This document shows, in pieces, positions 41,581 to 42,499 of a stretch of 64,000 nucleotides of DNA. The DNA comes from Escherichia coli (GTDB lineage Bacteria > Pseudomonadota > Gammaproteobacteria > Enterobacterales > Enterobacteriaceae): NCBI RefSeq assembly GCF_003334315.1, contig NZ_QOWR01000006.1; one strand, 5' to 3'. The position numbers were made by a program, and so were the translations under genes. Below the pieces are notes generated by a model that saw only the letters and a program-made list of their open reading frames with translations, was not told the origin of the DNA and ran no database searches. Position 1 is the stretch's first letter. Each line of letters starts with the position of its first letter.

Positions 41581-42499
41581 GAATCTTGACCTTTTTTGCT
41601 GTTATCGCCACTCCCTGCCGTGGAAGTCAGCTTAGAACAATGTACTCCCCCAGGACGGTGTTTTGAAGGTCTGCAGAATAAGATTTTGCCAGAGGGGAAG
41701 GCTCGATTGTGCTGTTAATAACTTAATAATGACAAAATAATGAGGTGTATATGCTTTACATGCAATGTTATATAGTGAATTGTTCTGATTCTTAATTGTA
41801 AGTCTGGTTTTTTTATCTGTAAGATAATTGTGTGAAAATGCCTCATTTAAGAATTCACTAATGAAACGCGATGATGATATTTCCGCATTACGGAGAGTTT
41901 AACAGCGTGATGATTTCCGAGGTGTCGTAATGGGGGCAAGGTGTGAAACTATTGTTAAGCGGAATTAATGAATGAGGATGATGCTAATTAATTATTATTT
42001 AATATTCAAAAAGGTTTTGATGTGCTTATTAATAATAGAAGATTACTTTGCCTAACATAACATAACTTTGCATCAGATAATTCGCAATGACCCTTATAAA
42101 TAAAAGGTTTTTGGGGTAAAATGCTCGCATAAATGACGGATCCCTGCTCTTGATGCCGCCTCACCATTGCTGTTTGTACGTGTTCGCGTATGACCAGCGA
42201 TGCTGCACGAGAGTGGAACAAGGACTCACATTTACATTTATACAAACACGCGCATGTCATAAATAGAAAAGAGTGAGTAACTTAATAGATATGCGATCCC
42301 TGAAGATATATTCTGTGATCTACTTCAGGCATTATAACGGAACAATGTGAGTCGCTTTTTTAGTGCAACTCATATGCATTTTTACTTTCGTCCGGGTTCC
42401 GGATGAAACTGCCAGGGAGGCACATTACAAATGGAATTGCTTGTTTGTGTGTGCACAGCATTAACCAGCTCAGTATGAGTCGCCAGTAAGTGATAATAT

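Follow-up and report, generated by a model that had tools for sequence, protein, structure and literature searches.

The stretch of Escherichia coli DNA that we analysed (the window, 64,000 nucleotides) carries two divergently oriented genes, alaA (405 aa; 40363..41580, minus strand) and lrhA (312 aa; 42500..43438, plus strand), which are separated by a gap of 919 bp (41581..42499). The first-pass annotation, made from the letters alone, had described this gap as unusually long, strongly AT-rich, and populated by short ORFs only, and these descriptions hold. Of the 48 intergenic gaps found in the corresponding 50 kb of K-12, it is the longest, and the runner-up measures 630 bp. Its GC content is 0.382 (38%) versus 0.52 (52%) over the whole window, with values of 0.48, 0.34, 0.29, and 0.42 for successive segments, and the AT-rich run that had been quoted, ttaataatgacaaaataatg, was located at 41723-41742. 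The longest ORF encodes 84 aa on the minus strand, and none of the ORFs is kept as such. The length was also correctly given as that of K-12: the MG1655 counterpart (2406642..2407560) is 919 bp long, differs by 6 substitutions (SNPs), and is without an annotated feature.

We took lrhA loci from 80 other Enterobacteriaceae genomes, 79 of them non-K-12. Across 78 species, the gap contains four constrained blocks: block A (41581-41690) adjoins alaA, block B (41942-42010) lies upstream of the lrhA promoter, block C (42070-42122) covers the lrhA core promoter, and block D (about 42385-42499) forms the 3' part of the lrhA leader. As a neutral yardstick, we used the 4-fold degenerate sites of alaA and lrhA compared with two other Escherichia lineages, for which identity was 0.67-0.69 and 0.48-0.51, respectively. 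Two islands in the gap lie at the neutral level, one at 41700-41940 (identity 0.67 and 0.60 to the two lineages) and one at 42129-42227 (0.62 and 0.55), and outside both islands identity is 0.92-0.96 and 0.79-0.95. Because these values far exceed those of the 4-fold sites, purifying selection within the genus must act on about 580 of the 919 bp. The conservation profiling that the first-pass annotation had proposed therefore yields constrained blocks, not the uniform lack of conservation that it had named as counterevidence. The closer of the two lineages, L002 (NZ_JAATUR010000019.1), is labelled E. coli; at 4-fold sites it shares only 0.67-0.69 identity with the window, and it is therefore a cryptic Escherichia lineage.

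The first island corresponds to an AT-rich spacer (41700..41940, unstranded) in which the sequence is unconstrained while length and base composition are held. The interquartile range of its length is 235-243 bp at a mean pairwise identity of 0.36, and the middle 240 bp between the two promoters cannot be aligned across genera. The distance from the inferred alaA transcription start site (TSS) to the lrhA TSS stays within 484-503 bp in almost every one of the 78 species (median 495), and the length of the lrhA leader is far more variable (333-586 nt, median 396, in 79 sequences). AT-richness is likewise kept in the 79 sequences, with a median GC of 0.37 for the spacer, 0.29 for the DNA upstream of lrhA, and 0.40 for the leader versus 0.54 for the flanking coding sequences. 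These regularities suggest that the upstream DNA may be under a spacing or composition constraint, for example, that of an H-NS nucleoprotein. The fixed distance of about 495 bp between the alaA and lrhA promoters is a minor new detail.

On the alaA side, the hexamers TTCAAA (41667..41662) and TACATT (41644..41639) are near-invariant in the 79 sequences, and the sequence of the 17-bp spacer between them varies freely. From this pattern of hexamer and spacer conservation, we infer a sigma-70-type alaA promoter (41639..41667, minus strand) with the two hexamers as its -35 and -10. The distance from this putative -10 would set the TSS such that the alaA 5' leader (41581..41633, minus strand) is about 53 nt long; the corresponding length in the 79 sequences is 47-54 nt, and identity in the leader block is 0.64-0.94 across 78 species. 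Adjoining the -35 and centred about -48 from the alaA TSS is a predicted Lrp site, CAAAATCTTATTCTG (41674..41688, minus strand), which agrees with the Lrp consensus YAGHAWATTWTDCTR at 13 of 15 positions and is kept family-wide as CAAAATCTTCTTCTG. A second Lrp-like match (41773-41787, plus strand) is found 100 bp further up, and two of the 12 matches to the Lrp consensus in the 64-kb window fall within the 919 bp. The alaA gene is reportedly under Lrp control.

The alaA leader contains a hairpin predicted by RNAalifold, ACUUCC-ACGGCA-GGGAGU (41610..41627, minus strand), with a 6-bp stem and a hexaloop. The loop and the inner pairs hardly vary among 66 distinct sequences from about 78 enterobacterial species, while one pair occurs as AU 43, GC 12, and GU 8 times and another as UG 36 and UA 26 times; 81% of the cells are paired, compared with 42-58% when the partner strand is slid. 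One stem pair covaries. Since the G.U pairs can form on the alaA sense strand only, an RNA element is modestly favoured over a DNA palindrome. We found neither an Rfam match nor literature on the hairpin, which may be an undescribed cis-regulatory RNA element and is a further minor new detail. It is present in a single copy per E. coli genome. A metagenome scan with the hairpin motif returned 120 loci, only 6 of which, all enterobacterial, have a close homologue of alaA (89-97% identity) beside the motif; the remaining matches are essentially all by chance. Pairing of the sRNA GcvB with the alaA leader, which by eye amounts to 11 bp, was rejected since it was no better than with shuffled sequences; the text of the GcvB-regulon paper does not mention alaA.

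On the lrhA side, the TSS is known from published work. Melamed et al. 2023 used primer SM079 to fuse PBAD to ATAAATGACGG, giving lrhA +1, and reported a leader of 371 nt; in the window, this sequence begins at A42129, 371 nt 5' of the ATG. The lrhA promoter (42094..42129, plus strand) consists of the -35 TTATAA (42094-99), which is provided by the near-invariant CTTATAAA, a 17-bp spacer, and the -10 TAAAAT (42117-22), which sits 7 nt upstream of the TSS. The -10 is TAAGAT, TAAAAT, or TAGGAT in 68 of the 79 sequences, with TAAGAT in most species. A simple promoter scan of the gap returned chance-level matches and picked neither real promoter because both -35 hexamers are weak.

Two conserved elements precede the lrhA promoter. 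The nearer is a candidate operator-like element, GCATCAGATAATTCGCAAT (42070..42088, unstranded; -59 to -41), which is kept out to Buttiauxella and Cedecea as GATCAGATAATTCGCAA. The other is block B (41942..42010, unstranded; -187 to -119 from the lrhA TSS), which reads TGTGAA-N5-ATTGTTAAG...ATTAATGAAT and includes AATTAATTATTATTTAATATT at 41987-42007. Identity in block B is 0.57-0.71 across 78 species, and 12 sequences from Escherichia, Citrobacter, and Salmonella share its AT-rich 21-mer, AATTAATTATTATTTAATATT, without a single change. Published work shows that H-NS strongly represses lrhA in BW25113 and that LrhA autoregulates lrhA positively. A scan of the gap for the H-NS nucleation motif TCGWTWAATT shows no enrichment, and the conservation of block B in sequence points to specific factors acting beside H-NS. 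Two candidate sites were rejected. An RcsB reading of 42073-86 was dropped, as the RcsAB-box consensus has no match there within 3 mismatches, and the T-N11-A dyad TCCGCATTACGGA (41882-41894), considered as a shared LysR operator, lacks conservation and is disrupted in K-12.

The lrhA 5' leader (42129..42499, plus strand) bears out the expectation of a long leader in this region, and with the mRNA 3' end lying 31 nt past the stop codon, the primary transcript is 1341 nt. Family-wide conservation is confined to its final ~115 nt, where both the validated UhpU site and the covarying hairpin H1 (see below) are found. Within the genus, the leader beyond its first ~100 nt shows 0.93-0.96 identity to L002 and 0.79-0.95 to E. 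albertii.

Several sRNAs act on this leader. Melamed et al. 2023 found that UhpU, ArcZ, and RprA repress an lrhA-lacZ fusion, and they proved the UhpU pairing by compensatory mutation; McaS binds without effect, and although it tops the chimeras with lrhA, no repression follows, for which the authors propose McaS inhibition. In an independent study, RprA pulled down lrhA mRNA (MAPS) and destabilised the transcript, and published RIL-seq data also support the link of lrhA to Hfq. We searched for duplexes with the seed regions of these sRNAs, since full-length sRNAs gave meaningless long duplexes. Of the seed-region duplexes, that of UhpU alone beats shuffled leaders: the best duplex forms at GAGUCGCCAGU (42477..42487, plus strand; -23 to -13) with an energy of -18 to -25 kcal/mol, which only 2% of shuffled leaders match, and the published lrhA-M1 mutation, C42484 to G, falls within this site. 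Candidate complements of the remaining sRNAs (ArcZ, RprA, McaS) were located at 42410-20, 42448-61, and 42218-32; their energies are no better than those with shuffled leaders, and these sites therefore stand as predictions. The predicted ArcZ site, UGCCAGGGAGG (42410..42420, plus strand), would be single-stranded between two hairpins; it complements the seed of processed ArcZ, UUUCCCUGGUG, at -17 to -18 kcal/mol, no better than shuffled leaders do, and is kept only in Escherichia and Citrobacter. The predicted McaS duplex (12 bp at 42448-42461, -15.5 kcal/mol; no better than shuffles) includes the near-invariant CACAGCA (42454..42460, plus strand), which complements UGCUGUG, a sequence common to RprA and McaS. 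In 76 sequences, the AG of this motif is invariant and its other positions are at least 90% conserved.

Two natural variants of the UhpU site were observed. Position 42480 of the window is U, while in K-12 it is C; a U-A pair thus replaces a C.A mismatch within the duplex, and this leader is predicted to pair with UhpU slightly more strongly than that of K-12 does. In the Citrobacter freundii complex (L009-L012, L015, and L017), the sequence about 16 nt 5' of the lrhA ATG (locus position 3001) is naturally CGCGAGU, the same C-to-G change as in lrhA-M1, which abolishes UhpU repression in E. coli. This agrees with the literature, in which control of lrhA by UhpU is regarded as Escherichia-specific.

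We propose, with a probability of roughly 90%, that the gap is the divergent transcriptional and post-transcriptional control region of alaA and lrhA. The alaA gene would be transcribed leftwards from its conserved sigma-70-type promoter, with the Lrp-like site adjoining the -35, and its 53-nt leader would open with the conserved hairpin. The lrhA gene would be transcribed rightwards from a weak promoter with its TSS at 42129, and the conserved DNA 5' of this promoter, about 190 bp long and very AT-rich, would take regulatory input, namely, silencing by H-NS, positive autoregulation by LrhA, and the action of further factors. The lrhA leader would then be a post-transcriptional hub at which UhpU, ArcZ, and RprA pair in an Hfq-dependent manner, lowering LrhA synthesis and mRNA stability and so de-repressing flhDC and motility. 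The first-pass annotation had anticipated dense regulation, and this is found in the published control of lrhA by sRNAs and Hfq, its repression by H-NS, and its autoregulation. The region is thus already known: it comprises the lrhA promoter and sRNA-targeted leader described in the literature, and with them the promoter and leader of alaA; GenBank-style annotation shows no feature in the gap, though the literature covers it. LrhA stands above flhDC, rpoS/RprA, and fimbriae, and by recent reports also above CRISPR-Cas, so that this control region decides between motility and sessile or stress states. What we add is a map, in window coordinates, of the family-constrained and the neutral parts, and three small leads (the alaA hairpin, the leader hairpin H1 described below, and the promoter spacing), which leave the current picture unchanged.

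Short RNAs arise from the lrhA leader. The Term-seq tables of Adams et al. 2021 contain a leader 3' end at K-12 2406933(-) in two conditions, which corresponds to window position 42208 (+80), 3 nt past a strong hairpin, and another at K-12 2406691(-) (Rho score 1.06, 'No'; intrinsic-terminator score 3.75), which corresponds to 42450, 50 nt 5' of the AUG. We found no literature on Rho termination within the lrhA leader. The second end implies an RNA of about 322 nt, close in size to the larger of the two lrhA leader RNAs (about 150 and 350 nt) that Bilusic et al. 2014 found bound to Hfq by co-immunoprecipitation; their northern blots also showed full-length lrhA mRNA to be raised in an hfq mutant. 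The first end delimits the 5' domain of the leader, an RNA of ~80 nt (42129..42208, plus strand) that is Escherichia-specific, and its identity to the other Escherichia lineages (0.62 and 0.55) is near that of the 4-fold sites. The first ~100 nt of the leader (42129-42227), to which this ~80-nt Term-seq species corresponds, are GC-richer and strongly folded.

Instead of being decay intermediates, these fragments (TSS-42208 and TSS-42450) might act in trans while bound to Hfq, either as sRNAs or as sponges of, for example, McaS. Such a role would suit the two bands bound by Hfq (150 and 350 nt) and the reproducible 3' ends at +80 and +322, the former just past a stable hairpin; moreover, McaS yields more chimeras with lrhA than any other sRNA yet does not repress it, with McaS inhibition proposed by the authors, and titration of McaS by leader fragments, if it occurs, would explain chimeras of this kind. 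We nevertheless regard a trans-acting role as unlikely. Even among Escherichia lineages, the +80 domain diverges as fast as neutral sites do, which speaks against conservation for a function in trans, and the +322 fragment stops 5' of CACAGCA, the best complement of McaS and RprA. In addition, no separate promoter or canonical terminator was found for the fragments, and the RNA can scarcely be detected when total RNA is probed. Both 3' ends belong to the lrhA transcript, and the extra RNA species of the gap are lrhA-leader fragments only, which were already published.

As a whole, the E. coli lrhA leader folds with -111.8 kcal/mol (z = -2.4 versus shuffles). RNAalifold applied to 76 leader 3' modules returned no pairs and hence no family-wide consensus structure, since the register of the hairpins differs from genus to genus. 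Helices were then drawn by hand and tested on a closer set of 17 Escherichia, Citrobacter, and Salmonella sequences, and only one was supported: hairpin H1, CGUCCGG-GUU-CCGGAUG (42389..42405, plus strand; stem 42389-95/42399-405), in which five of seven pairs change on both sides and 90% of the cells are paired. H1 is also present in minimum-free-energy folds and is a minor new detail. By eye, other hairpins appear to occupy the H1 position in more distant genera. An AU/GU-rich hairpin with the loop AAUUGC (42420..42454, plus strand), predicted by folding, contains both the RNA 3' end at 42450 and the near-invariant GGAAUUGC (42433-42440); neither this hairpin nor H2, a small hairpin 5' of the UhpU site, shows two-sided changes in the 17 sequences.

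A conserved 3' module of this kind raises the possibility that the leader is a riboswitch-like riboregulator that senses a ligand or protein and carries LrhA's signal. The signals acting on LrhA are still unidentified in the literature, the family-wide 3' module combines near-invariant single-stranded motifs with a covarying hairpin, and the leader folds better than its shuffles (z = -2.4). We consider this very unlikely, however, since Rfam has no match even at an E-value of ≤1, no multi-helix consensus emerges, and just one simple hairpin covaries in a leader most of which is not conserved between genera. The sRNA and Hfq sites together with the ribosome-binding region suffice to explain the conserved motifs.

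The first-pass annotation had also named this gap as a plausible hiding place for small proteins or a separate sRNA gene, and this part of its reading did not hold up: no conserved ORF, codon periodicity, terminator-like site, or Rfam match was found in the gap. A search of 40000-44500 with Rfam covariance models at an E-value of ≤1 returned nothing relevant, the three matches being at chance level and outside the gap. A simple scan found no terminator-like site on either strand of the gap, and an own promoter with an intrinsic terminator, as for a stand-alone sRNA gene, was likewise not found there. Among relatives, no ORF in the gap retains a conserved start or reading frame, and codon periodicity is flat in blocks A-D (for example, 0.216/0.207/0.205), while short coding-sequence controls are periodic. 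Small-ORF clustering over the 79 gaps gave ORF families that merely mirror the conserved DNA blocks.

That the gap nevertheless hides small protein genes or a regulatory uORF is a reading to which we give slightly less credence still than to a ligand-sensing leader. Short ORFs exist, including a 28-aa ORF at 42190, and a 15-codon ORF (42431-42478) has a strong Shine-Dalgarno-like GGGAGG 10 nt upstream. However, ATG 42190 is already lost in other Escherichia lineages, and in many species ATG 42431 reads ACG, AAG, or AGG in spite of the conservation of GGAAUUGC around it. The ORF families follow the conserved blocks, and variability is flat over the three codon positions, in contrast to the coding-sequence controls.

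The gap sequence was found in all 5426 complete E. coli genomes (5426/5426), in a single copy at 97-100% identity, and almost without exception no RefSeq feature lies under it. Among the 79 non-K-12 loci from the Enterobacteriaceae, 77 have alaA as the divergent neighbour of lrhA; gap lengths in 77 other species are 764-1140 bp, mostly 850-1010 bp. Because both the alaA neighbour and a similar gap length are found family-wide, the long gap is ancestral and not an insertion, as the first-pass annotation had concluded from the equal length in K-12. One could cite low GC, repression by H-NS, and IS1 in a few strains for the view that the gap is left over from a mobile element or from horizontal transfer. 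This view is effectively refuted by the presence of the gap as a single copy in every E. coli genome and by its synteny, similar length, and equal AT-richness in 77 other species, and no repeats or transposase remnants were found.

As a control region of lrhA, the gap resembles several known systems, and it differs from each. Like the rpoS, csgD, and flhDC leaders of E. coli, the lrhA leader is long, bound by Hfq, and targeted by multiple sRNAs, including ArcZ, RprA, and McaS, and leaders of both kinds feed stress signals into the decision between motility, biofilm, and stationary phase. Its 371 nt from the TSS and the UhpU site backed by compensatory mutation place lrhA in this class of long, sRNA-targeted leaders. 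Unlike rpoS, which is activated by ArcZ and RprA, lrhA is repressed by all three validated sRNAs; unlike the rpoS, csgD, and flhDC leaders, it has an extra, Escherichia-specific input from UhpU and is conserved across the family in its last ~115 nt only. The upstream DNA resembles that of leuO, an H-NS-silenced gene of the LysR type, in being AT-rich, strongly repressed by H-NS, and, according to the literature, positively autoregulated. In contrast to the leuO type, the H-NS nucleation motif is not enriched at lrhA and block B is conserved in sequence.

The lrhA leader also resembles the 5' UTR-derived RNAs of Adams et al. 2021, with reproducible 3' ends and short RNAs bound by Hfq; unlike the RNAs studied there, the lrhA fragments appear in the tables only, and one of them is not conserved. 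Finally, lrhA is divergent from its neighbour alaA, an arrangement kept in 77 of 79 loci, as in a classical divergent pair of a LysR regulator and its target. Unlike such a pair, the two TSSs are about 495 bp apart with no overlap of the promoters, and we found no convincing shared T-N11-A operator in the gap. To our knowledge, alaA is not a target of LrhA.

Some further observations concern individual strains, records, and the neighbouring DNA. A contiguous copy of the gap is missing in just 42 of the 5426 E. coli genomes, and IS1 interrupts the gap in a few strains (records CP126598 and CP144928; L087 and L088). In one strain, IS1 lies at window position ~41965-41970, inside the conserved block B and upstream of the lrhA promoter. 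In the other, it lies at ~41747 and is fused to an elaD remnant, which implies that lrhA and the nuo region are deleted in that strain. One locus of our set, L061 (CACSKA010000019.1), is labelled Chryseobacterium sp. 18061 and carries an enterobacterial alaA-lrhA locus closely like that of L063 (Citrobacter sp. 18056); the label is probably mistaken or the record contaminated. The next gap, between lrhA and nuoA (window 43439-44068), is 630 bp long and AT-rich (GC 0.33-0.42), the second longest of the region, and a strong Term-seq 3' end lies about 10 nt upstream of the nuoA start (window ~44059).
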